64,000 nt of DNA from an uncultured Chloroflexia bacterium (GCA_963712745.1 CAVQJC010000001.1:128001-192000), one strand, 5' to 3'. Positions 14,884-38,687 are shown, counted from the stretch's first letter. A program made the numbers and translations. The notes: generated from the sequence alone by a model not told the origin.

Positions 14884-15137
14884 CCAGTTCTCCCTGTCGT
14901 TGGCGGATGCGGCCAGCGGGCACCGAGCGATCGCTTGGATGTCGAGGCACTCGAGTGCCGTTGCGCGGCATGATACGTTCTGGGGGCACGACATGACCAG
15001 CTGATCCGCAACGTTCGCGGATGGGTCCGAGAGGATACCGTCGACCTGGTCCAGGTGGTTCCGTGCCCGTGGTGCGGCGGTATCGAACAGCGCCAGCGAC
15101 CCCTCACCCGGGTGGCTCCGACGATCAGGACTTGCCG

Positions 15138-16223
15138 ATGTACTACAAGGACGACTGGCCAAGGGCCAGGGAGCGCTTCCTGGCCTTCTGGGAGGGCGAG
15201 GTGGTGGACCGCTGCTGCATCGCCGTCCAAGCCCCGCGCGACGGCAGTCGCTACGTTCGACCTGAGCCGCCCGGGTCTCCAGGCGAGCTCACCAGGTGGT
15301 GGCTGGACGCCGAAGACAACCTCGAGCGCATGCTCGCGGAGTTCGAGGGCACCTACTACGGCGGTGAGGCCTACCCGGCGACGACGATGTGCCTGGGCGC
15401 ATCGGTCATGGCCGCCTACTTCGGCAGCCGGGCAGAGCTCCGTCCTGAGACCGTCTGGTACCACCCGGTCATCGAGGACTGGGGTTCCGCGAACCTGAGC
15501 TTCGACCGGGCGGCTGATCCGCTATACCGGGCCACCATCGAGGCCACGCGCTACTACGCCCGGGAGAGCCGTGATCGATACCTCGTCAGCCTGCCGGAGC
15601 TTGGCTCTGCCAGCGATGACCTGTCGCTGCTGCGCGGCATGCAGCCACTGGTCCTGGACATGATGCAGCAGCCTTCCCCGGTCAAGGCCGCACTGAGCCT
15701 GCTGGCCGACACCTGGGTCGAGCTCAACGAGGAGCTGTACGCCATCGCTGCCGACGCCAATGACGGCGGTTGCCCCATCGCCTGGATGCAGACCTGGGCT
15801 CCGGGGCCGCACTACCAGATGTCCTGCGACTTCTCCGCGGTCCTCTCACCGGCTCTCTTCGATGAGTTCATCGTGCCCGAGCTGCGGACGTACCTGCAGG
15901 TGAACGAGTTCGCCGTGTACCACTGGGATGGGCCCGATGCGGTCAAGTACCTCGACAGCCTGCTGGCCATCGATGGTATCGACGCCATCCAGTGGACGCA
16001 GGGCGCCGGTAGCCCGCCGGCATCGGATCCGCGCTGGATCCCCCTGTACCGCAAGATCCAGGCAGCAGGCAAGAAGCTGATCCTGCCATTCGTGGAGACC
16101 AGCGAGGTCGAGGCCCTGCTGGCTCAGATCTCGTCGCGCGGCTTGCTCATCGGGACGACCGCTCAGAGCGAGGAGGAGGCTCGAGACCTGCTGCGCCGGG
16201 TGGAAGGCTGGACGCGGGACTGA
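15138..16223 (+). CDS. UroD/MtaA-fold protein (annotated in other genomes as methyltransferase/corrinoid-protein-like)
   Basis: W..ARER..AFWEGE, LRG, CDFS..SP..F.EF, YHWDG and IQWTQGAG. Confidence 0.72.
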   Translation: MYYKDDWPRARERFLAFWEGEVVDRCCIAVQAPRDGSRYVRPEPPGSPGELTRWWLDAEDNLERMLAEFEGTYYGGEAYPATTMCLGASVMAAYFGSRAELRPETVWYHPVIEDWGSANLSFDRAADPLYRATIEATRYYARESRDRYLVSLPELGSASDDLSLLRGMQPLVLDMMQQPSPVKAALSLLADTWVELNEELYAIAADANDGGCPIAWMQTWAPGPHYQMSCDFSAVLSPALFDEFIVPELRTYLQVNEFAVYHWDGPDAVKYLDSLLAIDGIDAIQWTQGAGSPPASDPRWIPLYRKIQAAGKKLILPFVETSEVEALLAQISSRGLLIGTTAQSEEEARDLLRRVEGWTRD

Positions 16224-16259: not shown

Positions 16260-17417
16260 TCACCGCGCACTCGCTCCAGTAGCCCACAGGAGGTCACCAA
16301 GTCTTTCCACGTCCACCTCGATCCCCAGGCCGGAACCGGCTGGCGTGGGTCCCCATCCTCCCTCGCTCCGGGGCTCGTATCCGGCAACATGCTCGAGCGT
16401 CCAGTCATTCATGAACGAGACGGCGAACAGTTGGTCGGCCGGGACCCCGGCCGCGAGGTGACTGACTGCCGCGGTGACGATGTCGCCCCCCCAGCTATCT
16501 TCGATGGTCAGGCGCAGCCCGAGGTCGACGGCCGCGTCCCTGATGACCCGCGCGCGGCCCAGCCCACCCACGCGACTGATCTTGAGGTTGACGTGCTCCA
16601 TGGCGTTCAGCTCCATGGCCCGGATCAGCGATGGGAGGTCGACGATGACCTCGTCGAGCACCATCGGCATCGCCGTCGAGCGTCGGACCGACAACGACTC
16701 CTCCAGGGTGGCGCAGGGCTGCTCCAGGCGGAGTCGATGGCTGGAGTCCAGGCGCTCCACCTGTCGCGCAACGATCACCGCGTCCTGGCGCTGCCAGCCT
16801 CCATTGGCATCGGCGATCAGCGCGTCTTCCGGCCCGGTCGCGGCCAGCACGGCAGCGATACGCTCGACGTCTTCTTGTGGTCGCCCACCGACCTTCAGCT
16901 GGAAGCGATGGATGCCCAGAGCTCGCTGGTGCTCGACGAACGCCTGCATCTCGGCGGGACGGCCCAGGGGCACCGCGACATACAAGGGCAGCCTGTCCTG
17001 GAGGCGACCGCCCAGCAGATGTGCCACGGACAGACCGGTGGCCTTGCCCATGGCATCCCAGCAGGCGGTGTCCAACGCGCTCTTTGCGTATCCGGAGCCC
17101 CGCAGCGCTGCCTCCATCCGCGCCTGCACCTCGGCAGCATTGGTGACGTCGGCACCGATGACCGCCGATGCCAGGAGGGGCAGGGCCGAACGGGCGCCTT
17201 CGGAATGGGCCGGCAGGTAGGTCGGCCCCAGAGGGCAGGTCTCCCCGAAGCCCGAGGTGCCGTCCTCGGTGACGACCCTCACGACGGTGCTGTCGAGCTG
17301 GTTGACGACTCGTCCCCCGGACATGACGTAGTCCCCGTGGGCGTAGGTCAGCCGGTAGCCATAGACCTCCACCCGGGCTATCGAGGTCGACGTCGTAGTC
17401 GCGCCATCAGGATTCAT
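16260..17417 (-). CDS. Enolase-superfamily (MLE subgroup) enzyme, cis-3-hydroxy-L-proline dehydratase / hydroxyproline-betaine epimerase-like
   Basis: GETCPLGPTYLP, FQLKVGG, DAN, EQP, LDE, NLKISRVGG and IEDSWGGDIVTAA. Confidence 0.82.
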   Translation of the reverse strand: MNPDGATTTSTSIARVEVYGYRLTYAHGDYVMSGGRVVNQLDSTVVRVVTEDGTSGFGETCPLGPTYLPAHSEGARSALPLLASAVIGADVTNAAEVQARMEAALRGSGYAKSALDTACWDAMGKATGLSVAHLLGGRLQDRLPLYVAVPLGRPAEMQAFVEHQRALGIHRFQLKVGGRPQEDVERIAAVLAATGPEDALIADANGGWQRQDAVIVARQVERLDSSHRLRLEQPCATLEESLSVRRSTAMPMVLDEVIVDLPSLIRAMELNAMEHVNLKISRVGGLGRARVIRDAAVDLGLRLTIEDSWGGDIVTAAVSHLAAGVPADQLFAVSFMNDWTLEHVAGYEPRSEGGWGPTPAGSGLGIEVDVERLGDLLWATGASAR

Positions 17418-17462
17418 GGTCGCTCCTCATCTCCACCTTCACCCTGGACGAAGCCGTCTCCA

Positions 17463-19814
17463 TCAGGCCGCCTGGTGCTCGGTACGCTCGATGATCTCGT
17501 CCTGGAGCGCGCGAGAGATGTCGCAGAAGTAGTCGCTGTAGCCGGCCACGCGGACGATGAGGTCGCGGTGTGAGTCCGGATCGGCCTGCGCCTCGCGAAG
17601 CGTCTCTGCGCTGACCACGTTGAACTGGATGTGGTGACCACCGAGACCGAAGTAGGTGCGAACCAGGTGGCGGATGGTGACGATGCCGGCGTCGCCGTCG
17701 GCTAGTCCTGGGCTGAGCTTCATGTTCAGGAGCGTGCCGCAGGTCCGGCCGTGGTCCATCTTGGCAGCCGATCGGAGCACCGCGGTCGGACCCAGTCGGT
17801 CCATGCCGTGGGACGGCGAGATGCCCTCCGAGAGAGGCGCGCCGGCGGCACGGCCATCGGGCGTGGCACCGGTGACCTGGCCGAAGTAGACGTGGCACGT
17901 GGTCGGCAGCATGTCCACGCCGTAGCGGCCTCCACGCCCGTTGGGACGTCCGTCGACCGCATCCACGAAGGCCTCGAAGGCCCGGCGCATCAGGTCATCG
18001 GCAGCATCGTCATCGTTGCCCCACTTGGGCGAACGGTTGCGCAGGGTCAGGCGTAGCCGCTCCTGGCCCGCGAAGTCGTCGCGGAGCGCGACCAGCAGAT
18101 CCGGCATCGACACGTCAGCGTCGTCGTAGACGTGGGACTTGAGCGCCGCCAGGCTGTCGGTGAGCGTCCCGATGCCCACGCCCTGCACGAACGAGGTGTT
18201 GTACCGCGCCCCGCCGGCGTTGTAATCGAGGGCCTTCTCGATGCAGTCGTCGGTGATGAGCGAGAGGAACGGCGCCGGCATCTCCGCCGCGTAGATGGCC
18301 TCGATGTGGTCGTTGCCGCGCAGCTTGATGTCAAGCGTGTGCCGGAGCTGTGCTCGCCAGGCGTCGAAGACGTCGTCGAACGACTCGAGGCTCGCACCGT
18401 TCGAGGGTCCGAGTCGCGTGCCCGTGGCCGGGTCGATCCCGTCGTTGAGGGCGACCTCCAGCATCTTGGGCAGGTTGATGTAGCCGGTCAGGATGTAGGC
18501 CTCCTTGCCGAAGGCACCGGCCTCGACGCAACCGCTGGTACCACCCTCGCGCGCGTCCTCGACGCTCTTGCCCATGCGCGTCAGCTCGGCTACGACCGCG
18601 TCGGCATTGAATACGGAGGGGTAGCCGTAGCCCTGCCGGATGACCCGCGCCGTGGCCTCGATGAAGGCGTCGGGCGTCACGCTCGAGACCTGGATGTTGG
18701 GGCTCGGCTGGACGAGATGGAGATCGTCGACGACCTCGAGGAGCAGGTAGGACACGTCGCCCACGCCATCGCTCCCGTCCGGCAGCACGCCGGCCATGTC
18801 GATGGCCGCGAAATCGGTGTAGGTGCCGCTCTCCGCGGCCGTCACCCCCACCTTGGGCGGCGCGGGATGGTCGTTGAACTTGATGAAGAAGCACTCCAGG
18901 AGCTCGCGGGCGCGCTCGCGTGTCAGGCTCCCGTCGGCGAGGCCCTGCTGGTAGAACGGCTCCAGGTGCTGGTCGAGGTGGCCCGGCGAGAAGGCATCCC
19001 AGCCGTTGAGCTCGGTGATGACCCCGAGATGACAGAACCAGTACATCTGGAGCGCCTCGTGGAAATCGCGAGGCGCGTTGCGGGGCACCCGGTCACAGAC
19101 GTCGGCGATGCGCTCGAGCTCGGCCCGGCGCACGGGATCGGCCGTGACCGCGAGGCGCCTGGCTTCTGCGGCGTGACGCTCGGCGAGGATGGTGATGGCC
19201 TCGGCGGCGATGTCCATGGCCGCCAGCTCATCGAGCCGCTCGGGAGCGGCGGGATCGTCGCTGGCCTCCCAGCGAGCACGTGAGCGGGCCACATCGGCAC
19301 CGAGATCGAGCATGCCCTTGCGGTAGAGCTTGCCGTCACCCACGGTGTGACCCGGAGCGCGCTGCTCCATGAACTCGGTGAAGAGGCCGGCGGCGTAGGC
19401 CTCGTGCCAGGCAGGCTCCAGGCCTTCGAAGATACGATCGCGCAGGCTGCGGCCCTGCCAGAAGGGGATGACCTCGGTGCGGTATGACTCGAAGACCTCG
19501 TGGTCGACCGCATAGGCGGTCAGCTCACGGCTGTCGAGGATGCGCAGGTCCTGGAGGCTGTGGCAGGTCAGTTCCGGGAAGGTCGAGACCGCGCGAGGGC
19601 GTGGGCCGCGGTCGCCCACGATGAGTTCGTCCGCACCGATGGAGATGGTCTTGCGCTCGCAGATGTAACGGAAGGCCATGGCTCGACGCAGCGGCGGCGA
19701 GAGCCCTTCGACGCCGGCCGCGTAGAAACGCGTCACCAGCTGGGCACGTTCGGCCGAGATCGATGGCGGCGTGGTCAGGCTCCGCTCGCGCAATCGCGTC
19801 GTCCGATCGTTCAT
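17463..19814 (-). CDS. hypD: Glycyl radical enzyme, trans-4-hydroxy-L-proline dehydratase
   Basis: FTEFMEQRAPGHT, ELNGWDAF, PAPPKVG..ESGTYTDF, GTSGCVE, TGY, MLPTTCH and RVAGY, matching the HypD motifs as I recall them. Confidence 0.88.
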   Translation of the reverse strand: MNDRTTRLRERSLTTPPSISAERAQLVTRFYAAGVEGLSPPLRRAMAFRYICERKTISIGADELIVGDRGPRPRAVSTFPELTCHSLQDLRILDSRELTAYAVDHEVFESYRTEVIPFWQGRSLRDRIFEGLEPAWHEAYAAGLFTEFMEQRAPGHTVGDGKLYRKGMLDLGADVARSRARWEASDDPAAPERLDELAAMDIAAEAITILAERHAAEARRLAVTADPVRRAELERIADVCDRVPRNAPRDFHEALQMYWFCHLGVITELNGWDAFSPGHLDQHLEPFYQQGLADGSLTRERARELLECFFIKFNDHPAPPKVGVTAAESGTYTDFAAIDMAGVLPDGSDGVGDVSYLLLEVVDDLHLVQPSPNIQVSSVTPDAFIEATARVIRQGYGYPSVFNADAVVAELTRMGKSVEDAREGGTSGCVEAGAFGKEAYILTGYINLPKMLEVALNDGIDPATGTRLGPSNGASLESFDDVFDAWRAQLRHTLDIKLRGNDHIEAIYAAEMPAPFLSLITDDCIEKALDYNAGGARYNTSFVQGVGIGTLTDSLAALKSHVYDDADVSMPDLLVALRDDFAGQERLRLTLRNRSPKWGNDDDAADDLMRRAFEAFVDAVDGRPNGRGGRYGVDMLPTTCHVYFGQVTGATPDGRAAGAPLSEGISPSHGMDRLGPTAVLRSAAKMDHGRTCGTLLNMKLSPGLADGDAGIVTIRHLVRTYFGLGGHHIQFNVVSAETLREAQADPDSHRDLIVRVAGYSDYFCDISRALQDEIIERTEHQAA

Positions 19815-19817
19815 CCC

Positions 19818-20822
19818 TCAGCCTCCAACGTGGATCTCAAGCCGATAGCCCCGGAGCAGTTCAGCCGCGGCGGCGATTTCCGCGGGGCCCGGTGGCTGTA
19901 CCTCTGCCATCCTGTCAGCTCCTCCAAGTCGAGCCAGCTTGGATGCCCCGAGTTGGTGGTATGGCAGCAGGTGCAGGCGCCGCGAGCGCAGCCCCGATGT
20001 CAGCGACCCGATGGCATGCAACGTCGCGGGATCGTCCGTCCAGCCCGGCACGAGCGGCAGCCGCAGCCAGATCTCGGCACCGCCGGCATCGAGCCTGCGC
20101 AGATTCTCGAGGATGGGCTCGAGCGGCACGCCCGTCGACTCTCGATGGCGCTGCTCGTCGGCGCCCTTGAGGTCGAAGAGCCAGAGGTCGGTCAGCGGGA
20201 CCACGCGATCGAGCGTGGCCGGTGTGGCGAAGCCGCTGGTATCGACGCAGGTGTGGATGCCGCGGCGCCTGGCCTCCTCGAGACAGGCGGTGAGGAAGGC
20301 CGGCTGTGCCAGCGGCTCGCCACCCGAGAAGGTCACGCCGCCGCCCGACTGCTCGAAGAACGGGCGGTCACGCTCCACCACGGCGAAGACCTCATCCACC
20401 GTCGTTCGCTGGCCCACTAGCTCGCGCGCGCCTGAGACGCACGCGTCCGCGCAAGCTCCGCACCGCAGGCACAGGAGCGGGTCGGGCCGCGTCGGGCCCT
20501 CAGCGAGGCCCACGGGGCAGACCGCGTGGCAGGCGCCGCAGTCGATGCAGCGCTCCCCGATGATGCGGATCTCCGCCTCACGCGCCCGGCTCTCGGGGTT
20601 GTGGCACCAGGGGCAATCGAGCGGGCAGCCCTTCAGGAACACCGTGGTGCGGATGCCCGGCCCGTCATGGATCGAGAAGCGCTGGATATCGAAGCTGACA
20701 CCGGTGGGAAGACTCGCCGCACGCCGGGACGCTTCGAGGTCAGGCTCCCGCGTCGCGCCCGACACGGCGACCGCCGCCACTCCCGCTGTCGCAGCCCTGG
20801 GCAGCTCGTTCCGACCCGTCAT
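19818..20822 (-). CDS. Glycyl-radical activating enzyme (radical SAM with ferredoxin insert)
   Basis: HDGPGIRTTVFLKGCPLDCPWCHNPE, two CxxCxxCxxxC motifs and GGVTFSGGEP; the ATG overlaps the GH127 stop (ATGA). Confidence 0.93.
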   Translation of the reverse strand: MTGRNELPRAATAGVAAVAVSGATREPDLEASRRAASLPTGVSFDIQRFSIHDGPGIRTTVFLKGCPLDCPWCHNPESRAREAEIRIIGERCIDCGACHAVCPVGLAEGPTRPDPLLCLRCGACADACVSGARELVGQRTTVDEVFAVVERDRPFFEQSGGGVTFSGGEPLAQPAFLTACLEEARRRGIHTCVDTSGFATPATLDRVVPLTDLWLFDLKGADEQRHRESTGVPLEPILENLRRLDAGGAEIWLRLPLVPGWTDDPATLHAIGSLTSGLRSRRLHLLPYHQLGASKLARLGGADRMAEVQPPGPAEIAAAAELLRGYRLEIHVGG

Positions 20823-22765
20823 GGCGCTTGCCGGCCGGGGACTCGCGGTTGCCATACGCGCATCGTGCCACGCTGCCTGTTCGCCCACAGGAAGTAGGGC
20901 ACGGCCACGAGCTCGACCTCCCGCTCTGCCGGCGCTGTGCCGGTACCCGCGGGCTGGTACAGCCTTCCGCCTCGCGCTCGGCGCCGGACACGGCCGGACG
21001 CCCGAAGGGTATACGTGCCACCGAGCAGGCGTGGTCGCCATGCGGCCGTCACCGGAGCATCGACATCCACGGCTGCCGCAGCCAGATCGACACCGGGATC
21101 CTGGTCACAGGCCTCGAAGCAGTACACCAGTGGGCCGCGCTCCAGGGCGACCTGGCCACGGGTGGCGTCGACGTGCGGGTGCGCCTCCATGAACCGGGCC
21201 GCCATGGGCAGTGAGAGCGTGACGCAGTCTCCGGGCCCCCAGCGACGCCGCAGACGCACATAGCTGCCGGGCCGGACCGTTCGCGCCACATCGTCGCGGA
21301 AGGCCACGGTGGCGTCGCCAGCCCAGGCGGGGATGCGCAGGGACAGTGTCCAGACTTGCGGCGGAGTCTCGAGCAGCGTGAGCGTGACGCCGCCCTCCCA
21401 GGGCAGCCCGCTTCTCAACTCGAGCCGGACAAGGCCCCCGGGCAGGTTCGTTTCGAGCACGCTATCGAGGTACTGGTGGACCTGGATGCCGGCGTCATCG
21501 GCCGTCGCGGCGTAGTGGCCGACGCTGGCCACGAGGCGCATCAGGTTGGGAGGACAGCAGGCCACGTAGTACCACTCGGCGCGACGGTGCGAACCGTTGC
21601 TCAGCAGCGGATTGCCGTAGAAGAAGGTGCGCCCGTCGCTGGAGACCGCGGGGAGCACGCCGTTGTAGAGCGTGCGCTCCATGAGCTCCGCATAGCGAGC
21701 CTTGCCCGTCGCGAGCAGCAACCGCCAATTCCATTGGATGCTGGCCACCGCTGCGCACGTCTCGCAGTATCCGCTGCCTGGGGGCAGCTCGTAGGGATCG
21801 CCCAGACCCTCCGTCTCGGGGCGCTGGCCGATGCCGCCGGTGATGTACAACTTGCCCCCGACCAGGTCGCGCCACTGTCGCTCCGAGGCCGCGAGCAGCG
21901 CCTGGTCCCCTTCTTCGAGATAGTCGTCGACGGCGCCGATCGCCAGGTACAGGGCCCGTACGGCATGACCCTCCAGGAGCGACGCCTCACGCACGGGCAC
22001 GTGGTCCTGGAAGTAGGCCGGGCCTCCGGAATACCAGCGCCCGGCGTTGCCCCCGAGCCGGCCGTGACCACGCGCGTCAAGGAAGAAGCGAGCCAGTTCC
22101 ATGTAGCGTCGCTCGGCCGTCTCGCGGTAGAGCTCGATGAGGGCCGACTCGACGAGCGGATGCCCATCGGGTTCGGGTCGTCGCCCAGGTCCGAAGACGC
22201 TGTCGATATGGTCGGCGAAGCGGATGGCGACCTCGAGCAGCCGACGATCGCCGAGGGCTCGACTCCAGGCCACCGCAGCCTGGATGAGATGTCCGGCGGC
22301 ATAGATCTCGTGGCTGTAGGCCACGTCGGTCCAGCGCAGCTCCGGGAAGCCCACCTGGTAGAACGAGTTGAGATACCCGTCGGGTGACTGGGCACGCACG
22401 ACCAGGTCTATCGTCTGCTCGGCAGCGGCAGACACACGCAAGGGCAGTCCCTGGGGCGTCGCCCAGGCGACCGCTTCAAGCCACTTGTAGACGTCGGTGT
22501 CGAGGTACGGCGGGAAGCGCACCAGGTCCAGCTCGCGATGCTCGCGGGCGGCTGCAGCCTTCAGCATCGAGAGGTTCCCGGCCCGATCGAGCATGGCGTA
22601 GCCACGCGCCAGGCTGGCCTCGCGGTTGAGCCGCTGCTGGTGGGCCCAGAAGCCACCCGCAGCCGGGACCGCCGCGCGCCACAGCGGGCGGAGCCGTGCG
22701 AAGGGGCCGGGGTCGACCGCGACCGGGCCGCCCGCGTGCTCCTCGCGCTCGATGTGCGTAGGCAT
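20819..22765 (-). CDS. GH127 beta-L-arabinofuranosidase (HypBA1-like)
   Basis: DVYKWLEA, HEIY.AGHL, GHAVRALY, YITGG, E..G..YELP, YCETCAA and ACCPPN (Zn-binding Cys). Confidence 0.9.
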   Translation of the reverse strand: MPTHIEREEHAGGPVAVDPGPFARLRPLWRAAVPAAGGFWAHQQRLNREASLARGYAMLDRAGNLSMLKAAAAREHRELDLVRFPPYLDTDVYKWLEAVAWATPQGLPLRVSAAAEQTIDLVVRAQSPDGYLNSFYQVGFPELRWTDVAYSHEIYAAGHLIQAAVAWSRALGDRRLLEVAIRFADHIDSVFGPGRRPEPDGHPLVESALIELYRETAERRYMELARFFLDARGHGRLGGNAGRWYSGGPAYFQDHVPVREASLLEGHAVRALYLAIGAVDDYLEEGDQALLAASERQWRDLVGGKLYITGGIGQRPETEGLGDPYELPPGSGYCETCAAVASIQWNWRLLLATGKARYAELMERTLYNGVLPAVSSDGRTFFYGNPLLSNGSHRRAEWYYVACCPPNLMRLVASVGHYAATADDAGIQVHQYLDSVLETNLPGGLVRLELRSGLPWEGGVTLTLLETPPQVWTLSLRIPAWAGDATVAFRDDVARTVRPGSYVRLRRRWGPGDCVTLSLPMAARFMEAHPHVDATRGQVALERGPLVYCFEACDQDPGVDLAAAAVDVDAPVTAAWRPRLLGGTYTLRASGRVRRRARGGRLYQPAGTGTAPAEREVELVAVPYFLWANRQRGTMRVWQPRVPGRQAP

Positions 22766-22859
22766 GCATCACCTCACGGCGCGTCTCGCCAGGTGAAGAC
22801 CGGGGTAGACGAAAGGGCGCAGGCCTCGGCGGCCCACGCCCTTGCTCTTCAGTGCCGGT

Positions 22860-24117
22860 CTAGGACTCGGGACTGAACGAGATCGTCTCCTCGATCACGT
22901 TGGTACCGTCGGCCTGGGTGACCCAGATGTCGTACATGTTGGCGGTGATATCGCCATTCTCGTCGAAGTCGATGGGGCTGCTGGCACCCTCGAAATCGAT
23001 GTCCTCGCCCGCGAGGACGGCGTTGATGGCGTCGGGCAGCTGCTCGAAGGTGTACTTCTCGCCCGGCGCCGCAGAGATCGACCTGGATCTCCGGGCCGAA
23101 GACCGTGGGGTCGTCCGAACCGGCCTTGAGAGCCGCCAGGAAGGCCAGGAAGACGCTGTCGAAGGCCTGGCCTGTGAAGCCGTAGAAGGGCACGCCCTCA
23201 GGTGCAGTCGACTCGAAGAGTTCCTGGTACCCGGCGAACGACGAGCCGGCACTGCTGTTGCCGATCGTCCCGCGCATGCCCTCGACCGTGGACTCTACCT
23301 CCGTGCAGGCCTGGAGCGTGTCAGAGCCCAGGGTCCTGGTGGGATCCCAGGCACCTGTGCGCGTCAACGGACCCTTGAGCTTGGCCCAGTCACCACAGAA
23401 GGTAATGAACAGCCACGCGTCCGGGTCGCCCTGGACGGCCTGCTGCGCTTCGGTATCGAGCGTGGCGCCTTCGGGATTGAAGATGACTTCCTCACCGATG
23501 GTTCCTCCGGCACCCGTCCAGGCCTCCTTGAAGACGTCGTTGAGGCCTACGCCATAGGCGTCGTTACGGGTGAGGAGGTTGACAGTAGCGTCCTGGCCGA
23601 ACTGGTCGGCCATGACCGACGCCAGCACCCTGCCCTGGAGAGCATCCGAGGAGACCGGGCGCCAGAGCAGGCCGTTCTTCTCCATCTCGGTGATGGCGGG
23701 ACTCGTGCCACCGGTGAACTGCGCGATGCCACCGGGGCCGAAGACGGATTCGAAGATGGCGATCGAGACACTGCTGTAGAAGTCGCCGACGACGACGTCC
23801 ACGTCATCGACCTCGGCCAGCTTCTTGGCCGCCTCGGTGCCGGCGGTCTGGTTGCCCTGGCTGTCCTCGGAAGCCACGAGCGAGACGTTGATGGAGTCCA
23901 GACCCATGTCCTCGACGGTCGCCGCGACATAATCGACCGCGCTGGAAGTCGCGTGGTCCCAGGCCTGGCCGGCGGGACCGGCATCGCCGGTCAGGGCCAC
24001 GAGAACCCCATACCGAAGGTCCAGCTCCGGCGCCTCCTGGGCCGCGACTGGCGCCGCCGTGGCCGCGAGCAGCAGAGCGGTGATACCTGCCGCTGACAGT
24101 CTCATTCGTTCCGACAT
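22860..24117 (-). CDS. Branched-chain amino acid-type (Liv/PBP1) ABC substrate-binding protein, apparent frameshift near 23085
   Basis: Signal peptide, LTGD, RPVSSD..QG and NDAYG; C-terminus (FEGASSPIDFDENGD) lies in ORF 22860-23252. Confidence 0.82.
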
Positions 24118-24217
24118 ATGCGGTCCTCCCTATCTCCGTATCCCAAGCCCTCAGGGGTGCCTGAGCACAAGCTGGCAGCCAGACTGTGGTACTGCTCGCG
24201 GCCGAGGATAGCACCCC

Positions 24218-24245
24218 GGCACTCGATTGCTAACACTCGTGTGCC
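24218..24245. promoter_or_regulatory. Tandem LacI-type operators upstream of the SBP-GH127-hypD operon
   Basis: GGCACTCGATTGCT and AACACTCGTGTGCC; the same motif occurs at 25453-25480. Confidence 0.6.
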
Positions 24246-24289
24246 GTCCGTTGCAGGCGCAGATTCCGAGGTGGACGCCTGGCGGCCGG

Positions 24290-25393
24290 TCAGGACCTGG
24301 TGCGCGAGCCTGGCGCCGGACCAGTCGAGCCACGGACGACCAGGGAAGGTTCGATTACCGGGTGCTGCTGATCAGCGGGAACCTCTGCCCCCTGCAGCTT
24401 CTGGAACAGGATGCCCACCGCAGTCCTGATCATCTCGTCGACCGGCTGCTTCACCGTGGTCAAGGCCGGCACGCTGATCGTCGCCAGCAAGGTGTCATCG
24501 AAGCCGACGACCGAGATGTCCTCCGGGACGCGCAGACCCCGCCGTTGGGCAGCCTGCAACACGCTGATGGCGACGGCATCGGTCGAACACACGATCGCTG
24601 TCGGCGGGTCGTCCAAGCCCAACAGCCGACCGAGCGCATCACCGGCACCGGTGGCGTCTTGCGACGTGTCCTGGATGTAATCGGGGCGCAGGCCAGTCCC
24701 GGGTCCAGCGACATAGGCTCGGTAGGCATCCTCGCGCTGTCCGGCCTCGCCGATGCGACCATCGACCACGAGCGCGATGCGTTGGTGCCGAAGCGCCGTC
24801 AGGTGATCGAGGGCCGCTGTGATACCTACGCGGTTATCGACGTTGACGGTCGGAATCGTCTCGGACCGAGTCCAATGCCAGACGGCGACGACCGGGACGT
24901 TCGTGTCCCTCAGCTCAGCAGCGAAGTCGGGCCGCTCCAGCAGGTCCCCCAGGAAGATGATGGCGTCGCAGTGGCGTGACTCGAGGATGCGCCACAGCTC
25001 GACACCCTCGTCAGCTCGCCCGTGGACGTGACCCAGCACCACGTTGTAGTCATGGTTGCCGGCCTCGACCGACGCCGCCTGGATGGCGGCCGCGTCCAGT
25101 GGGTCGATGATCTCGCGCACGATGAGGCCCAGCAACATGGTCGGCGCGCCGCGAAGTCCGCGCGCCAGCGGATTGGGTCGATAGCCCATCTGGCGCGCAG
25201 CCTTGAAGATGCGCTCGCGTGTCCGCTCGGCGACCGGAAACCCGGTAGGTACGCCCGAGAGCACGCGGGACACCGTCGACCGCGAGACGTCCGCCTCACG
25301 GGCGATGTCCCGCATCGTAGGAGCTGTTCGGCGAGGACGCTCATACGAACGCTGTGCGGGTGTGAGCGACCGTCCATCGCTAGGGTCTGACAT
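24290..25393 (-). CDS. LacI family regulator
   Basis: TMRDIAREADVSRSTVSRVL, YRPNPLARGL, VPEDISVVGFDD and LTTV.Q. Confidence 0.95.
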   Translation of the reverse strand: MSDPSDGRSLTPAQRSYERPRRTAPTMRDIAREADVSRSTVSRVLSGVPTGFPVAERTRERIFKAARQMGYRPNPLARGLRGAPTMLLGLIVREIIDPLDAAAIQAASVEAGNHDYNVVLGHVHGRADEGVELWRILESRHCDAIIFLGDLLERPDFAAELRDTNVPVVAVWHWTRSETIPTVNVDNRVGITAALDHLTALRHQRIALVVDGRIGEAGQREDAYRAYVAGPGTGLRPDYIQDTSQDATGAGDALGRLLGLDDPPTAIVCSTDAVAISVLQAAQRRGLRVPEDISVVGFDDTLLATISVPALTTVKQPVDEMIRTAVGILFQKLQGAEVPADQQHPVIEPSLVVRGSTGPAPGSRTRS

Positions 25394-25452
25394 CAGTCAC
25401 TGCGCACAATAGTAAGGCGTCGATCGCCTGTGTGGCACCCACCTTGACCGAC

Positions 25453-25480
25453 GGCAATCGCGTGCCTACACTCGATTGCC
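25453..25480. promoter_or_regulatory. Tandem LacI-type operators between lacI and livH
   Basis: GGCAATCGCGTGCC and TACACTCGATTGCC (central CG palindromes) just after TTGACC. Confidence 0.62.
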
Positions 25481-25568
25481 GTTGAGACCCGTGCGGTAGG
25501 GAGCTGGGACATGGGCGAAGTGAGGGCGCGGCGCTGCGTTCACCGTCGCCCCGTGCGCTAACCGCGCC

Positions 25569-26453
25569 ATGGATAATCTCGCCCAGCTCATCGTCAACGG
25601 CCTGGTGACCGGCGGGATCATCGCCATGGGCGCGGTCGGCGCATCACTCATCTTTGGTGTCCTGCGGGTCGGCAACTTCGCTCACGGTGACTACCTGACG
25701 CTGGGCGCCTACGCCGCGCTGTTCGCGAACGTGGCCATGGCCCAGAACCTCCTGGTCGCCGCGGTGGTGGCCGTCGTGGGCACAGCTCTCTTCGCGATCG
25801 CGATGGAGTTCATCCTCTTCCGACCGATGCGCGGGAAAGGGTCCGCAAGCCTGTTCATCATCACCATCGGGCTGGCCATGGCCATGCGCCACGTGATCTA
25901 CCTGCAATACGGCGCCGCGACCCAGCAGTACGACATCGATCAGTTCGCAGTCGTCGTGGTCGGATCGGTGCGTTTCTCGCCGGGTGCGATGGTCGCCACG
26001 GTGGCAGCCCTCATCGCCATCCCGGCCGTGGGGCTGTTCCTCTCGCGATCGCGCATCGGCAAGTCGATGCGGGCCCTCGCCAATGAGCCCGAGCTGGCCG
26101 CCGTCTCAGGCATCGACACTGATCGCATCGCCGTCTACACGTGGGCGCTGGCGGGCGGGTTGGCCGGACTCGCGGGCATCCTGCTGGGACTCCTGCAGGG
26201 CACCTTCAACCCCGAGCTGGGCTGGGCCTTCCTGTTCCTCATCTTCACGGCCGTCATCCTCGGCGGCATCGGCAGCGCCTACGGTGCCCTGATCGGCGGA
26301 CTGGCCCTGGGCCTGCTCATGGAGGTTTCGACCTGGTCCGGCCTGATGGGCGGGCTTGACCCACGCTTCAAGCCGGTCGTCGCGTTCGCGGCGCTCATCC
26401 TCCTGCTGCTGTACCGGCCGCAGGGCCTCTTCGGCAAGGCGCGACTGCTGTGA
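25569..26453 (+). CDS. livH: Branched-chain amino acid ABC permease
   Basis: QLIVNGL..NFAHGD, GKSMRA and ILGGIGS..GA. Confidence 0.9.
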   Translation: MDNLAQLIVNGLVTGGIIAMGAVGASLIFGVLRVGNFAHGDYLTLGAYAALFANVAMAQNLLVAAVVAVVGTALFAIAMEFILFRPMRGKGSASLFIITIGLAMAMRHVIYLQYGAATQQYDIDQFAVVVVGSVRFSPGAMVATVAALIAIPAVGLFLSRSRIGKSMRALANEPELAAVSGIDTDRIAVYTWALAGGLAGLAGILLGLLQGTFNPELGWAFLFLIFTAVILGGIGSAYGALIGGLALGLLMEVSTWSGLMGGLDPRFKPVVAFAALILLLLYRPQGLFGKARLL

Positions 26454-27433
26454 GCGGCATCCTCGCTCCGGACTTCTGGATCTACGTCGGCGTCATCGCC
26501 GGCATCTACACCATCTTCGCGCTGGGCCTCCAGGTGCAGTACGGCGTGGCCGGCCTGGTCAACCTGGGCCAGGTGGCGTTCATGGCCATCGGCGCCTACA
26601 CCATGGCCATCCTCGTGGCCCGCTACGAGTGGTCGATGATCCCGGCGTCCATCGCCGCCATCGGCGCGGCCATGGCCTTCGCGGTCGTGCTGGGCGTGCC
26701 CACGCTGCGCCTGCGCGCGGACTACTTGGCCATGGTCACCATCGCGGCGAGCGAGATCGTGCGCTACATGGCCTTGAACCTCAATGACATCACCGGGGGT
26801 CCGGCCGGCACGATCGCCCTCCTCGGCCCGGCCAAGCTGGCCAGCTACAACGGCGAGTGGCAAGAGTTCCAGGGCTGGGTGCAGTCGACGCTGAGCAGCA
26901 TCACCGGGGGTGGGGTAAGCCCCGACTCGGCCATGCTCATCATCGTTTGGATCGTCGCCCTGATCCTCCTGACCGCCACCTGGCTCATGGTCCGCTCTCC
27001 CTGGGGCCGCATCCTGCGTGCCATCCGCGAGGACGAGGATGCTGCCCAGGCCATGGGCAAGGACACCTTCAGCCGCAAGCTCCAGGCGCTCGTGCTGGGC
27101 GCTGCCTTCGGCGGGCTCGCGGGCCTCTTCATCGCCTGGCAGGTCTCGGTCTTCACGCCCAACGACTTCAGGCCCATCTTCACCTTCTACGCCTACATCA
27201 TCATCATCCTCGGCGGGCCCACTCGCGTCTGGGCGGTCCCGGTCGGCGCCATCCTCTTCGGCATCCTCTTCGCAGGCACGCGTTTCCTCGACTTCTACCC
27301 ACTGAACGAGCTGGCTTCTGGCGACCGCGCCTACTTGCGCCTGCTCCTCGTCGGCCTGCTGCTCGTGGTGCTGATGGCGCTCCGTCCTCAGGGCCTCTTC
27401 GGCAAGAAGGAGGAGCTGATCCTTGAGAAGTGA
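26450..27433 (+). CDS. livM: Branched-chain amino acid ABC permease
   Basis: G..NLGQVAF, LRLRADYLAMVT, SPWGR.LRAIREDE and RPQGLFG. Confidence 0.9.
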   Translation: MSGILAPDFWIYVGVIAGIYTIFALGLQVQYGVAGLVNLGQVAFMAIGAYTMAILVARYEWSMIPASIAAIGAAMAFAVVLGVPTLRLRADYLAMVTIAASEIVRYMALNLNDITGGPAGTIALLGPAKLASYNGEWQEFQGWVQSTLSSITGGGVSPDSAMLIIVWIVALILLTATWLMVRSPWGRILRAIREDEDAAQAMGKDTFSRKLQALVLGAAFGGLAGLFIAWQVSVFTPNDFRPIFTFYAYIIIILGGPTRVWAVPVGAILFGILFAGTRFLDFYPLNELASGDRAYLRLLLVGLLLVVLMALRPQGLFGKKEELILEK

Positions 27434-28220
27434 GCAGCCGCTCCTCGTCGTCGATGGGGTGAGCAAGCGTTTCGGAGGATTGCAGGCCGTGGACGCTGCG
27501 TCGTTCAGCGTGGGACCCGCGAGCATCACGGCGCTGATCGGCCCCAACGGTGCCGGCAAGACGACGGTCTTCAACCTGCTGAGCGGCTACCTCCCCTCCG
27601 ATAGTGGCACGGTCCGGTTCGATGGCGGGTCGGTCAGCGGCCTGAAGGCGCATGCCATCGCTCGGCGCGGCCTGGTGCGCACCTTCCAGATCCCGCGTGT
27701 GCTGACGCGCATGAGCGTTCTGGAGAACGTCATGCTTGCCGCCCAGCACCAGCCGGGCGAGCGGATGGGCGCGGCGCTGGTGATCCCCCGTCGCATCAGG
27801 CGTCGAGAGGACGAGGTGCGCCAGCAGGCCGACGAGATCCTGCGCCTGGTGAATCTCGAGCGGCTGGCAGGGGACTACGCAGGGACGCTGTCAGGCGGCC
27901 AGCGCAAACTCCTCGAGTTCGGGCGAGTGCTCATGACCGACCCCAAGCTGATCCTGCTCGACGAGCCCATGGCCGGCGTGAACCCGACGCTCGGCGAACA
28001 GCTCCTGGAGCACGTCGTGGAACTGCGCGCCTCGCGCGGCATCGGCTTCGTGTTCATCGAGCACGACATGGACGTGGTCATGTCGTACGCCGAGCGCGTC
28101 GTGGTCATGGACGAGGGCCGCGTCGTGGCCGATGCCTCGCCCGACGAGGTACGCGCCGACCCGCGCGTGATCGAGGCGTACCTGGGACGCCACGCCGCCG
28201 ATATCGAGGACGAAGCATGA
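27423..28220 (+). CDS. livG: Branched-chain amino acid ABC ATPase
   Basis: GPNGAGKTT, RTFQ, LLDEPMAG, IEHDM and DPRVIEAYLG. Confidence 0.92.
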   Translation: MRSEQPLLVVDGVSKRFGGLQAVDAASFSVGPASITALIGPNGAGKTTVFNLLSGYLPSDSGTVRFDGGSVSGLKAHAIARRGLVRTFQIPRVLTRMSVLENVMLAAQHQPGERMGAALVIPRRIRRREDEVRQQADEILRLVNLERLAGDYAGTLSGGQRKLLEFGRVLMTDPKLILLDEPMAGVNPTLGEQLLEHVVELRASRGIGFVFIEHDMDVVMSYAERVVVMDEGRVVADASPDEVRADPRVIEAYLGRHAADIEDEA

Positions 28221-29089
28221 GCATCGCCCCCCGGTCCGTCGAGACGCTGCCCGAGGATGCGTCCGCGAGCAAGGAGCATGCGCTCACGGTGACCGACGTC
28301 GTCAGCGGCTATGTCGACGAGCCGGTCCTTCGGGGCGTCTCCATCGACGTGCCGCGACAGACGGTCGTCACCGTCATCGGGCCCAACGGCTCGGGCAAGT
28401 CGACGCTGCTCAAGACCATCGTCGGACTGCTGCGTGGCCGTGAGGGCTCGGTCCTGATGCTCGATCGCGACGGTGCCCGACAGGAGCTCATCGGCAAGCG
28501 ACCGCACCAAGTCGTGGAGCTGGGTCTAGCCTTCGTGCCCCAGCTCTCGAACGTCTTCACCGACCTGTCCATCCGGGAGAACCTCGAGATCGGCGGCTTC
28601 CCGATCCGTGGCAATGAAGGCGAGCGCATGGACCGTGTGCTGGAGCACTTCCCGATCCTGCGAGAGCGGCTGAGCCAGCGCGCCGGAACCCTGTCCGGTG
28701 GCCAGCGGCAGATGCTCGCGCTGGGACGCGCCCTGATGAGCGATCCCCACCTGCTGGTGCTCGACGAACCCTCGGCCGGCCTGGCTCCGACCGTCGTCGA
28801 CGAGGTCTTCGAGCGCATCCAGTCCATCAACGCCAGTGGCATCACCGTGCTCATCGTCGAGCAGAAGGCGCGCCAGTGCCTGGCCATCTCGGACTACGGC
28901 TACGTCCTGGACATGGGCAAGAATCGCTACGAGGGGCCGGGCAAGCAGCTGCTGCACGACCCCGAGGTGGTGGACCTGTACCTGGGCTCACGCGGTCGGT
29001 TGGGCCGGTCTCGGCAAGCCGCGGCCAGGGCCGCGAAGTCCGTGGCAAACGAAGCCCGTGATGCCCAGCCAGGTACATCGGACGCATGA
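28217..29089 (+). CDS. livF: Branched-chain amino acid ABC ATPase
   Basis: GPNGSGKST, LSGGQRQMLA, LDEPSAGLAP and VEQ. Confidence 0.92.
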   Translation: MSIAPRSVETLPEDASASKEHALTVTDVVSGYVDEPVLRGVSIDVPRQTVVTVIGPNGSGKSTLLKTIVGLLRGREGSVLMLDRDGARQELIGKRPHQVVELGLAFVPQLSNVFTDLSIRENLEIGGFPIRGNEGERMDRVLEHFPILRERLSQRAGTLSGGQRQMLALGRALMSDPHLLVLDEPSAGLAPTVVDEVFERIQSINASGITVLIVEQKARQCLAISDYGYVLDMGKNRYEGPGKQLLHDPEVVDLYLGSRGRLGRSRQAAARAAKSVANEARDAQPGTSDA

Positions 29090-31515
29090 CGCACCTGGCC
29101 TCCAAACCGCGCCGGTTCCTGGGCTCGTCCATGCCGGTCCGGCTGGCCTGGCAGGCGCTCGGTGCGGAGTGGCTCGATGACCGCTCGATGCGAGTCGATG
29201 TCCGCGCAGAACGCTTCGAACCGTCACTCGAGGTGCTCACCGGCGTACCCAGTGAGATCGCGGCAGGCCCCGTCGGGGAGCACAAGGACGCCACGGTGCA
29301 GGTCGACGCCTGGAGCGACAACGTCATCCGCGTACGCTGGAGCCCAGGCGGGGTGCTCCCCGATGGCGCGACGCCGATGCTGGTGGGCGCACCCGAGGCG
29401 CTGGGTCAGTTCGAGCGTCTCGACGGTGACGAGGATGGAGCATTCGGCCTGCGTACAGGGGCCTGGACGGTATGGGTCGAACCCGATCCGATCCGGCTCG
29501 TCGTACGTGACCGGGATGGCGCCGTCGTCGCAGTGACCCGTGCCCCCGACCACGAGGCTATCCGGCGCTCGGATGGCATGTGGGACCGGACCGCGCAGCG
29601 ATGGCTGTACCTCAACCGCCACGCCTATCCGCTCGGCTCGACCGAAGAAGGGGTCGACCGGTGCGCCTTCGTCACCTTCGAGCTGCGGCCCGACGAGCGC
29701 GTCTATGGCCTCGGCGAGAGCTTCGGACGGGTCGAGAAGACCGGCCTCGAGCAGCGACTGTGGGTGGCGGAGGCCTTCACCAACAACTCGCCGGTGGTGT
29801 ACAAGCCCGTGCCCTTCTGCCTGTCCACACGCGGCTACGGCATCTACGTCAACAGCTCACACGCGATGCAGACACACATCGGCGACCTGGACCCTACGGC
29901 GCTATCGTGGATCGTCGAAGACACCGACGTGCTCGACTTCTTCATCGTCCTGGGGCCCGGGCTGCCCGACGTCCTGCGTCGCTACACCGACCTCACCGGC
30001 ACGCCCGCGGTGCCTCCACGCTGGTCGTTCGGGCTGTGGCTCAGCCGCTGCACGTACACCTCCCAGGACGAGGTGCTGGAGGTGGCGCGGGAGGCGCGGG
30101 AGCGCGACATCCCCGCAGACGTGATGCACATCGACACCGGCTGGTTCGAGAACGACTGGGTCTGTGACTGGCGCTTCGGTTCACGCTTCCCGGACCCCGC
30201 CGCGATGGTCGCGGAGCTGCGCGACATGGGTTTCGCGGTGACTCTCTGGCAGTGGCCCTACGTCGGCGTCGACTCGCCGGCCTTCGCCGAGGCGCGTGAC
30301 GCTGGTGTGCTGGTCCGCCGTCGCGGCGGTGGGGTGCTCGTGCTGCCCGGCCGCAACGGACCCGACGTGGGGGTCATCGACTACTCCGACCCGGCCGCAG
30401 CGCGCTGGCTCCAGGATCGCCTGCGGCCGCTACTTGAGATGGGTGTCGCCGCGATCAAGGCGGATTTCGGCGAAGCTGCTCCGGCCGATGGTGTCTACGC
30501 CGGCATCGCCTCGGAGGCAGCCCACAACGCCTATCCCCTCCTCTACAACCGAGCCGTCTGGGAGGCATCCGAGGGTGTACGGGGATCGGAGGACACGGTC
30601 ATCTGGGCGCGCTCCGCATGGGCCGGCTCGCAGCGCTATCCGCTGCACTGGTCCGGCGATGGCCTCGCTCGCCATGAGGATCTTGCGTGCGTGCTGCGCG
30701 CGGCGCTCTCGATGGGGCTCTCAGGCTTCCCCTTCTACAGCCATGACATCGGCGGTTTCCTGGGGGAACCCAGCCCGGAGCTCTACGTCCGCTGGGCGCA
30801 GTTGGGGCTGTTCTCGTCGCACGCCCGCACGCACGGCCTGGGTCCACGCGAACCGTGGGCCTTCGGCGCAGAGGCCGAAACCATCGTGCGCCGCTATGCC
30901 CAGCTCAGATACGAACTGATGCCGTACTTGTGGAGCGAGGCGCTCGAGTGCGGACATACCAGTCTGCCCATGCTGCGGCACCTGGTTCTCGCCTACCCTG
31001 ACGACCCGACGGTCAGGGCTATCGAGGACGAATTCCTCCTCGGAGGTTCCCTGCTGGTGGCGCCCGTCCTTGACGAACGGGATGCCAGGGACGTGTACCT
31101 GCCACACGGCGAGTGGGTCGAGTGGCACACCGGTGAGGTGCTCCAGGGCGGATGCTGGAGACACGTGTCAGCACCTCTCGAGGTCCTGCCCATCTACCTG
31201 CGCGGAGGCTCCATCATCCCGCTCGGGCCGCGCGCGAGGTATTCGGGCGAGCAGCGGCTCGATCCGTTGCGGCTGCTCATCCCAGAGCCTGGACGGGCTG
31301 GTGGATACACCGTGCGTGACCCGGAAGGCGACATCCATGTGGCCTACGTCAAAGACGGCGACCGGCTCGAGGTCGACGTGACCGGAGCACGTGGCGAAGT
31401 CTCAGTGGAGGTCCCAGGCCGCTCGGCGTGGGAGGAGGAGAGGTCCTCGTCGAACGGGCACGACGGCGGGCGGCGGCGCCTCCTGGTACGGGTGCAGCCG
31501 GAGCGTTCGTCTTGA
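29086..31515 (+). CDS. GH31 glycosidase (alpha-xylosidase YicI-like)
   Basis: YGLGE, YKPVPF, HIDTGW, KADFGE (nucleophile), WSGD, SHDIGGF and H.RTHG. Confidence 0.9.
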   Translation: MTHLASKPRRFLGSSMPVRLAWQALGAEWLDDRSMRVDVRAERFEPSLEVLTGVPSEIAAGPVGEHKDATVQVDAWSDNVIRVRWSPGGVLPDGATPMLVGAPEALGQFERLDGDEDGAFGLRTGAWTVWVEPDPIRLVVRDRDGAVVAVTRAPDHEAIRRSDGMWDRTAQRWLYLNRHAYPLGSTEEGVDRCAFVTFELRPDERVYGLGESFGRVEKTGLEQRLWVAEAFTNNSPVVYKPVPFCLSTRGYGIYVNSSHAMQTHIGDLDPTALSWIVEDTDVLDFFIVLGPGLPDVLRRYTDLTGTPAVPPRWSFGLWLSRCTYTSQDEVLEVAREARERDIPADVMHIDTGWFENDWVCDWRFGSRFPDPAAMVAELRDMGFAVTLWQWPYVGVDSPAFAEARDAGVLVRRRGGGVLVLPGRNGPDVGVIDYSDPAAARWLQDRLRPLLEMGVAAIKADFGEAAPADGVYAGIASEAAHNAYPLLYNRAVWEASEGVRGSEDTVIWARSAWAGSQRYPLHWSGDGLARHEDLACVLRAALSMGLSGFPFYSHDIGGFLGEPSPELYVRWAQLGLFSSHARTHGLGPREPWAFGAEAETIVRRYAQLRYELMPYLWSEALECGHTSLPMLRHLVLAYPDDPTVRAIEDEFLLGGSLLVAPVLDERDARDVYLPHGEWVEWHTGEVLQGGCWRHVSAPLEVLPIYLRGGSIIPLGPRARYSGEQRLDPLRLLIPEPGRAGGYTVRDPEGDIHVAYVKDGDRLEVDVTGARGEVSVEVPGRSAWEEERSSSNGHDGGRRRLLVRVQPERSS

Positions 31516-33473: not shown

Positions 33474-33535
33474 TGGTCACTCGATTACAGCGTAGCGGGG
33501 TCACCGCCATCGCGACACAGGCACGGGTGCTCCCG

Positions 33536-35316: not shown

Positions 35317-35383
35317 TGCCTGGTCGTTACTGCTGCAGCGATCGTGCGGGAGGCAGGGTCACCGCCTCCCGCGCTCTGGTGGG

Positions 35384-36716: not shown

Positions 36717-36741
36717 GAGATACCTCCTCTACCTGCTGCTC

Positions 36742-37598: not shown

Positions 37599-37600
37599 GG

Positions 37601-38650: not shown

Positions 38651-38687
38651 CGGCAGGTGGCTCCTCGGGTGCGGCGAAGGTGATGTA

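Follow-up and report, generated by a model that had tools for sequence, protein, structure and literature searches.

A LacI-flanked locus of a Chloroflexia bacterium that combines GH127, HypD and a Liv-type importer: a candidate route for the salvage of hydroxyproline O-arabinosides

The breakdown of β-L-arabinofuranosides linked to hydroxyproline (Hyp) is known from Bifidobacterium longum, whose hypBA cluster, as described in the available text of two reports (PMC6085000; 10.1101/2020.03.26.009860), encodes the GH127 enzyme HypBA1, the GH121 enzyme HypBA2, the GH43 enzyme HypAA, a sugar ATP-binding cassette (ABC) importer and a LacI-type regulator. Another GH127 enzyme, XeHypBA1 from Xanthomonas euvesicatoria, has been described as specialised for the last sugar on Hyp. 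Hyp itself is consumed by the Clostridioides difficile system, in which HypD and its activating enzyme HypD-AE act, with ProC, on free Hyp in a Stickland-type metabolism, and by the Lhp clusters (including that of Labrenzia aggregata, with the enolase-type cis-3-Hyp dehydratase LhpJ), which carry putative ABC-type Hyp transporters according to the available text of PMC5144071. This report concerns an island of about 15 kb (positions 16260–31515) in a stretch of 64,000 nt (the window) of genome G000, from an uncultured Chloroflexia bacterium (4.2-Mb assembly, 84.6% complete). In one of its two operons the genes for a GH127 glycosidase, HypD and the HypD activase stand with those for an enolase and the binding protein of a Liv-type importer; in the other, across a LacI gene, the remaining importer genes are followed by a GH31 glycosidase.

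As in the hypBA cluster, a cytoplasmic GH127 enzyme would finish the breakdown of a Hyp-linked β-L-arabinofuranoside after ABC import and under LacI-family control. Unlike that cluster, the island has no GH43 gene, has a Liv-type importer instead of one of the carbohydrate uptake transporter 1 (CUT1) type, carries Hyp catabolism in the GH127 operon and would use the amino-acid part of its substrate as well as the sugar. It is relatives from the same family, not the island, that show the classical Bifidobacterium-like layout of GH127, LacI and CUT1 genes. The step proposed for the island GH127 is the one for which XeHypBA1 is specialised, but the Xanthomonas enzyme is extracellular and unlinked to Hyp catabolism, whereas the island enzyme is cytoplasmic. 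With C. difficile the island shares the same enzyme–activase pair, catalytic and substrate-binding residues included; here, however, the pair is translationally coupled to a glycosidase and presumably under a sugar-type repressor. With the Lhp clusters it shares an LhpJ-like enolase and an importer that has its paralogue within a cluster of this kind in another genome (G013). It differs from them in having no Hyp epimerase, D-Hyp dehydrogenase, deaminase or α-ketoglutarate semialdehyde dehydrogenase, and the oxygen-sensitive HypD instead; its regulator is a LacI and not a GntR protein, and two glycosidases are included.

We propose, with a probability of roughly 55%, that the island serves the LacI-controlled, anaerobic salvage of Hyp O-arabinosides from plant or algal Hyp-rich glycoproteins of the extensin type. 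All of the enzyme families are already known; the novelty lies in how they are wired together and in the import of a glyco-amino acid that this implies. The first-pass annotation of this DNA knew of no described locus of the kind, and full-text literature searches, whose scope excluded subscription-only papers and supplements, likewise returned no paper in which HypD was connected with GH127 or arabinofuranosidases. In the available text of Huang et al. 2018 (PMC6219649) plant glycoproteins are raised as a source of Hyp and the enzymes releasing it are presented as an open challenge, and a paper on Latescibacteria mentions GH127 for extensin sugars only.

The two operons and their enzymes

Open reading frame (ORF) calls, Pfam and NCBIfam placed all eleven genes (11/11) where the first-pass annotation had put them and bore out both of its operons. 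On the minus strand, with small gaps or overlap, lie in order the genes for a secreted Liv-type solute-binding protein of the hydrophobic amino acid transporter (HAAT) family (22849–24117, first gene of the operon), a cytoplasmic cysteine glycosidase of the GH127 β-L-arabinofuranosidase type (20819–22765), the HypD-activating radical S-adenosylmethionine enzyme (19818–20822), the glycyl radical enzyme HypD, trans-4-hydroxy-L-proline dehydratase (17463–19814), and an enolase of the MR/MLE type (16260–17417). The gaps are 83 bp between binding protein and GH127, 3 bp between activase and HypD and 45 bp between HypD and enolase. The stop codon of GH127 (20819–20821) and the activase ATG at 20822 share bases as ATGA, so GH127 and activase are translationally coupled. 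A longer activase ORF opens at 21041, yet homology starts only near its residue 113, and the start is most likely ATG 20822. The LacI-family repressor gene (24290–25393, minus strand; Pfam LacI and Peripla_BP_3), whose product is the presumed regulator of both operons, lies 172 bp upstream on the same strand. Divergent from it, on the plus strand, are livH (25569–26453), livM (26450–27433), livG (27423–28220), livF (28217–29089) and the gene for a cytoplasmic GH31 α-glycosidase (29086–31515). These overlap one another by 4–11 bp, and GH31 is translationally coupled to livF through an overlap of 4 bp.

The radical enzyme had been called HypD in the first-pass annotation, and this was confirmed. 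It scored 1143.5 bits (1143.2 for the genome-derived protein) against the NCBIfam equivalog model NF043068, which has a cut-off of 1100, and its best PDB match was C. difficile HypD (6VXC, 913.7 bits), the next enzyme class reaching 480.7 bits (1R8W). Identities as HplG (7VUA, 363.1 bits) and as a proline-derivative glycyl radical enzyme of the 8ID1 type (407.7 bits) were rejected against the score for 6VXC. The available text of Backman et al. (PMC7077986) gives residues shown or proposed to be necessary in C. difficile HypD, and on alignment to them 14/14 catalytic and binding residues are kept: F148, R152, H156, W272, D273, K321, S329, D334, F335, C429, E431, Y445, T638 and G758. Among these, D273, D334, H156, S329, F335, Y445 and T638 correspond to the HypD-specific Asp278, Asp339, His160, Ser334, Phe340, Tyr450 and Thr645 in the C. 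difficile numbering of that paper. The glycyl radical site G758 lies within RVAGYSD, and the Cys loop, with C429 and E431, within GCVE. By these measures the protein is a genuine HypD, and the conversion of trans-4-L-Hyp into Δ1-pyrroline-5-carboxylate (P5C) is its predicted activity. HypD is among the most widespread glycyl radical enzymes.

The activase carries a CPLDCPWC motif and scored 322.7 bits against TIGR02494 (cut-off 174) and 292.9 bits against NF043069, under the cut-off of 425. The genome encodes proC and Pro_dh; neither proC nor pruA adjoins HypD. A Δ1-pyrroline-2-carboxylate reductase was not found in the locus either, the only candidate being a 33%-identical homologue of the OCD/μ-crystallin type on contig C6.

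The GH127 protein has the three Pfam domains of its family (PF07944, 284.6 bits; PF20736, 64.1; PF20737, 82.6). Its closest PDB match was the Geobacillus β-L-arabinofuranosidase 4QJY (413.1 bits), followed by 6EX6 (351.7) and HypBA1 (3WKW, 316.6). For the comparison with HypBA1, residue numbers were used that we take to be those of that enzyme. The catalytic Glu and Cys and the Zn ligands are in place (E319, E335, C337, C403 and C404), in agreement with the family pattern, in which a Cys acts as nucleophile, a Glu as acid/base and Glu-x-Cys together with Cys-Cys forms the Zn site (PMC10850190). An identity as aceric acid hydrolase was rejected (NF049879, 374.5 bits against a cut-off of 950). 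The protein, the sole GH127 of the genome, has no signal peptide and is cytoplasmic, and its substrate must therefore be imported. This substrate would be Hyp that carries β-L-arabinofuranose (Araf); free Ara-Hyp is hydrolysed by GH127 enzymes and is preferred by XeHypBA1, according to the available text of PMC6085000. The genome encodes araA twice.

The enolase (Pfam MR_MLE_N and MR_MLE_C) is LhpJ-like. It scored 368.6 bits against NF043002 (cis-3-Hyp dehydratase), missing the cut-off of 500, with the runner-up family at 119.6. The best PDB match was 4MGG (299.5 bits), presumably the Labrenzia enzyme, and the 2PMQ/4H2H/4E8G types followed at about 210–219 bits. When aligned to 4MGG, the acid/base residues K175 and K279 and the metal site D203/E232/D255 lie in conserved motifs; a mechanism with two Lys as acid/base and an Asp/Glu/Asp Mg site is described for LhpJ in the available text of PMC5144071.

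GH31, with three GH31 Pfam domains and no signal peptide, keeps the catalytic Asp motifs KADFGE and HWSGD and matched 5F7C (449.9 bits) and YicI (394.7 bits) in the PDB. It falls short of an assignment as α-xylosidase of the YicI type: the score against NF007940 (alpha-xylosidase, 506.6 bits) was under the cut-off of 606, and at the positions of Cys307-Phe308 of YicI, presumably its +1/C6 pocket setting xylose specificity, the protein has T-G, like the α-glucosidase entry 5F7C.

The importer and the operator-like palindromes

The HAAT set is complete, comprising a Peripla_BP_6 binding protein (60.3 bits) with a Sec-type signal peptide, two BPD_transp_2 permeases (LivH/UrtB and LivM types) and two separate ATPases (LivG type, with ABC_tran and BCA_ABC_TP_C; LivF/UrtE type, with ABC_tran). 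The product of livH scored 132.4 bits with UrtB and 112.6 with LivH, and that of livM 161.4 with LivM, all sub-cut-off; livG gave 245.9 bits with LivG, and livF 196.2 with UrtE and 188.8 with LivF. No Liv or Urt equivalog cut-off was reached by any part of the importer, and the models leave its substrate class unset. The PDB matches of the binding protein were weak only (3IP5, 35.2 bits); sequence relatives of it (P0002–P0018) are 62–85% identical. Its closest paralogue is that in G013 (binding protein 45–47% identical, LivHMGF 49–55%), which sits among genes for GntR, DHDPS, DAO, an aldehyde dehydrogenase and both AcnX subunits, a classical L-Hyp cluster.

A different importer accompanies GH127 in the rest of the family. 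GH127 homologues (36–51% identical) were found in 19/200 other family genomes; eight of the loci were retrieved (GH127 40–46% identical) and six of them were annotated. A LacI homologue (44–54% identical) lies within 2.5 kb of GH127 in 8/8, and a CUT1 sugar importer is present at 6/6 of the annotated loci, some of which also have araA, a sugar kinase gene or GH51. No orthologue of the CUT1 binding proteins of these relatives was found in the G000 assembly at its 84.6% completeness (best match 23–30% identical), and Pfam annotation of 16260–31515 found no CUT1 genes there and no glycosidases beyond GH127 and GH31. The Liv-type importer thus stands where the relatives have the CUT1 importer. The gene content points to a combination of three modules, a LacI–GH127 arabinoside module, a Hyp-type importer and a HypD–activase–enolase module, all of them under a sugar-type repressor.

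Each of the two promoter regions beside LacI contains one copy of a 31-nt element (a palindrome of 28–32 nt), each copy being an inverted repeat. Site A, an imperfect palindrome (24217–24247; repeat families D1 and I1), lies between LacI and the binding-protein gene, and site B (25452–25482; repeat families D1 and I7) upstream of livH, overlapped by a promoter-like TTGACC-17-TACACT (25444–25472; consensus match only). A degenerate pattern made from the two sites matched only these in the 4.2-Mb assembly, which shows that the element is no dispersed repeat but is not an independent test of uniqueness, since the pattern was derived from them. Both sites are kept in a second species of the genus (G006), where site B is a perfect palindrome, even though the LacI gene between them has only 79% DNA identity. 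In 8/8 family relatives a 12-mer of this operator type, GCA-NN-CG-NN-TGC, occurs in intergenic DNA by the GH127, CUT1 binding-protein or LacI gene, with arms identical to those of the window in two; taken over all the DNA, the pattern is about as frequent as chance would give (some 2.4 per 64 kb in shuffles), and its weight rests on the positions. As the operator-like palindrome is common to both operons, they are probably co-regulated.

The LacI protein is 53% identical to a LacI encoded beside araA on contig C11 of G000, this araA being a bona fide L-arabinose isomerase gene (742.5 bits against a cut-off of 622). We infer that the regulator belongs to an arabinose- or arabinoside-sensing clade.

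A perfect 14-mer palindrome, GGCACTCGAGTGCC, similar in type to the arms of the LacI operator, was also found at 14946–14959. It lies between divergent genes beyond the enolase (13801–16223), and a similar site is kept in G006 (L086:7793). One of the two genes is URO-D/MtaA-like (probably 13801–14883, minus strand). The other (15138–16223, plus strand) encodes a 361-aa protein without a Pfam match, for which an AlphaFold model (mean predicted local distance difference test score 95.9) predicts a URO-D/MtaA methyltransferase fold (4AY7, template modelling score about 0.6). This URO-D-like pair may belong to the LacI regulon. A third URO-D-family gene lies in the window at 57374–58618, beside ROK and sugar ABC genes, and URO-D-like proteins seem to recur in carbohydrate loci of the genome.

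Conservation, recurrence and surroundings

The gene order of the island is the same in G006, at about 79–90% nucleotide identity, with GH127–activase–HypD–enolase and two downstream genes on contig C54 and binding protein–LacI–livHMGF–GH31 on contig C56. As it recurs in this second species, the arrangement is more than chance. The G006 orthologue of the enolase (L086, on contig C54, 5447–6531) matches in two frames (residues 7–180 and 194–382), indicating a frameshift or an assembly error.

Outside these two genomes the island is scarce. An orthologue of the binding protein was found in 1/48 other genomes of the genus (G006) and, save for one paralogue, in 0/400 sampled family genomes; HypD was found in 1/24 other genomes of the genus (again G006) and in 0/16 of the neighbouring family. 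Both occur together in G000 and G006, and the island is therefore acquired or lost as one block. Several of its genes have their nearest named homologues in Chloroflexi metagenome-assembled genomes (MAGs), which points to a Chloroflexota affiliation. HypD relatives in species-representative genomes, at most 69% identical, come from Acidobacteriota, Verrucomicrobiota, Planctomycetota, Gemmatimonadota and Chloroflexi MAGs. The G+C content is 0.64–0.71 throughout the window, and the composition profile has no foreign-DNA signature.

The linkage, which the first-pass annotation had allowed might be unique, is not so: besides the second species, there are independent adjacencies of GH127 and HypD. 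A Planctomycetota MAG (L077, 2903–18142) has a GH127 gene divergent from, and abutting, activase–HypD, together with a second GH127, a sulfatase, an M24 Xaa-Pro aminopeptidase and a carrier of the major facilitator superfamily; both of its GH127 proteins have DUF6805 tails, and the locus may form an independent set of enzymes for Hyp glycoproteins that are sulfated or arabinosylated. In two Gemmatimonadaceae loci (L056 and L008) a weak GH127-like gene, GntR, activase and HypD follow one another in that order. A metagenome contig of 1.9 kb carries GH127 (79%) and then the activase (92%).

Metatranscriptome contigs (X18, X19 and X20) matched 10/11 island genes with 0–1 mismatches over 151–257 nt, and one (17303–17515) bridges the enolase–HypD junction. 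They come from three libraries of three studies (two labelled estuary, one sediment), and as such libraries can contain DNA, carry-over being possible, they are a weak hint that the island is expressed. A terminator scan gave 2 sites against 3.6 expected.

The window as a whole is rich in sugar-uptake loci. Adjoining the island, at 32367–38860, a LacI gene stands with a sugar ABC system of the CUT1 type, a fragment of a PfkB-type kinase gene and the gene for a SIS protein that resembles fructoselysine-6-phosphate deglycase (95.8 bits, far under the cut-off); this may be a locus for fructosamines, which are Amadori glyco-amino acids. The second glycyl radical enzyme found in G000, on contig C11 (300000–320000; L124), belongs to the PFL2 family (TIGR01774, 310 bits, under the cut-off; no equivalog) and adjoins a canonical L-arabinose locus (araA, CUT2 ABC system and LacI) and a corrinoid activase of the RamA/AcsV type.

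The proposed pathway and its competitors

In the proposed salvage pathway, the binding protein and LivHMGF, members of a subfamily otherwise found in Hyp clusters, would take up Hyp still bearing β-L-arabinofuranose (Hyp-Araf, perhaps Hyp-Araf2-3). The cytoplasmic GH127 would free L-arabinose for the araA pathway, whose genes lie outside the island, and HypD, once activated by its radical partner, would dehydrate the freed trans-4-Hyp to P5C, which would enter proline or glutamate metabolism. The LhpJ-like enolase may process a 3-hydroxyproline isomer or epimer. LacI would bind the common palindrome at both promoters until released by an effector of the arabinose type. Gene identities, catalytic residues, operon coupling, the operator common to both operons, conservation in a second species and the importer exchange are observed; which ligand is carried, what releases LacI, what GH127 cleaves and what enolase and GH31 do is inferred. 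The only importer of the regulon is of the Hyp type, and GH127 needs an imported substrate. Import of Hyp-Araf would account most simply for every part, and uptake of the intact glyco-amino acid is plausible. The suggestion of the first-pass annotation that Araf-Hyp enters by an amino-acid-type transporter thus stands in part: the exchange of a CUT1 for a Liv-type importer fits it, whereas the rarity of the linkage and the position of the nearest paralogue in a free-Hyp cluster do not.

Several further observations weigh against the proposal. The context of the G013 paralogue is catabolism of free Hyp, and import of free Hyp would be simpler. Annotation of the locus gave no GH43, protease or secreted hydrolase that would yield Hyp-arabinosides, and no search directed at GH121 was made. 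Enolase homologues (67% identical) adjoin HypD without GH127 in G062 and L013. cis-3-Hyp is not known from plant glycoproteins, and GH31 has neither a known substrate in extensin-type glycans nor a known role on Hyp glycosides. The support from the operator pattern is lessened by its derivation from the two sites. Among metagenome relatives of GH127 the activase adjoins in only 1/7 loci, the remaining contexts being unrelated (GH2, peptidases, TPR proteins), and HypD was found in 2/400 other sampled genomes of the class, with a score above the cut-off in just one. Lastly, a GH127-like ORF lies within 10 kb of HypD in only 3/80 of the best HypD loci. This count was obtained with Pfam and a small custom hidden Markov model, tblastn (E ≤ 1e-10) of the window proteins having missed divergent GH127 and given 2/80; in 57 of the 80 loci the flank reaches 5 kb or more on one side, all flanks together come to 978 kb, and enrichment is not claimed.

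The main competitor, which we consider unlikely but take seriously, keeps the same regulon and has the Liv-type system import free Hyp isomers, as is presumed for its paralogues, while GH127 acts on β-L-arabino-oligosaccharides brought in by another transporter; the genes would then be co-regulated only because Hyp and β-arabinosides are released together outside the cell. The free-Hyp setting of the G013 paralogue favours it, as does G062, in which HypD (71% identical), activase and enolase (67%) stand with another Liv-type importer, Pro_dh, an OCD/μ-crystallin gene and GntR but without GH127. According to the available text of PMC6085000, B. longum HypBA1 acts inside the cell on imported β-Ara2, and the window has several further sugar ABC systems. 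Yet for the CUT1 binding proteins linked to GH127 in the relatives no orthologue was found in the genome, and the Liv-type system is the sole importer of the regulon. Its permease/ATPase operon, moreover, ends in a coupled GH31 gene, which would be odd for a plain amino-acid carrier, and the Hyp genes of the relatives are under GntR and not LacI.

It is improbable that the island is a mosaic that lacks a common substrate, in which a HypD–activase–enolase cassette has landed behind a LacI–GH127 pair and the glycosides cleaved by GH127 and by GH31 have no relation to each other. The sporadic association (the 3/80 loci above), the accessory nature of the island within the genus and the lack of an obvious extensin link for GH31 and enolase would all agree with such an origin. 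A chance insertion is, however, difficult to reconcile with the translational coupling of GH127 and activase, with an operator common to both promoters, with the retention of the arrangement and both operators in a second species at 79–90% DNA identity, or with the independent adjacency of GH127-like genes and HypD in two other phyla.

Collagen carries Glc-Gal-hydroxylysine and contains trans-3-Hyp. That the island serves collagen products (4-Hyp, 3-Hyp and α-glucosylated hydroxylysine glycosides, with GH31 as α-glucosidase) is very improbable: the amino acids of collagen would be fitting substrates for HypD and an enolase of the 3-Hyp type, and GH31 is closer to 5F7C than to YicI at the two positions taken to set xylose specificity, but LhpJ uses cis-3-Hyp and not the trans isomer, neither a collagenase nor a β-galactosidase is present, and the clade to which GH127 and LacI belong is associated in 8/8 relatives with araA, GH51 and importers for arabinosides.

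Salvage of Hyp O-arabinosides leads to a broader and more tentative idea about the importer, that a HAAT system has been retooled for glycosylated amino acids, namely Hyp O-arabinosides and perhaps an α-linked glyco-amino acid for GH31. The conjugate would enter intact and be split in the cytoplasm, with both halves being consumed, the Hyp by oxygen-sensitive radical chemistry. If true, this would be the first glyco-amino-acid substrate of the HAAT family and would widen the substrate range of Liv-type importers. Physical linkage and a common regulator tie HypD in this island to an importer and to the final step of deglycosylation. If the idea holds, no earlier route has been defined through which anaerobes reach the Hyp of plant or algal cell-wall glycoproteins. 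It points to extensin-type glycoproteins as a source of both carbon and nitrogen in anoxic sediments.

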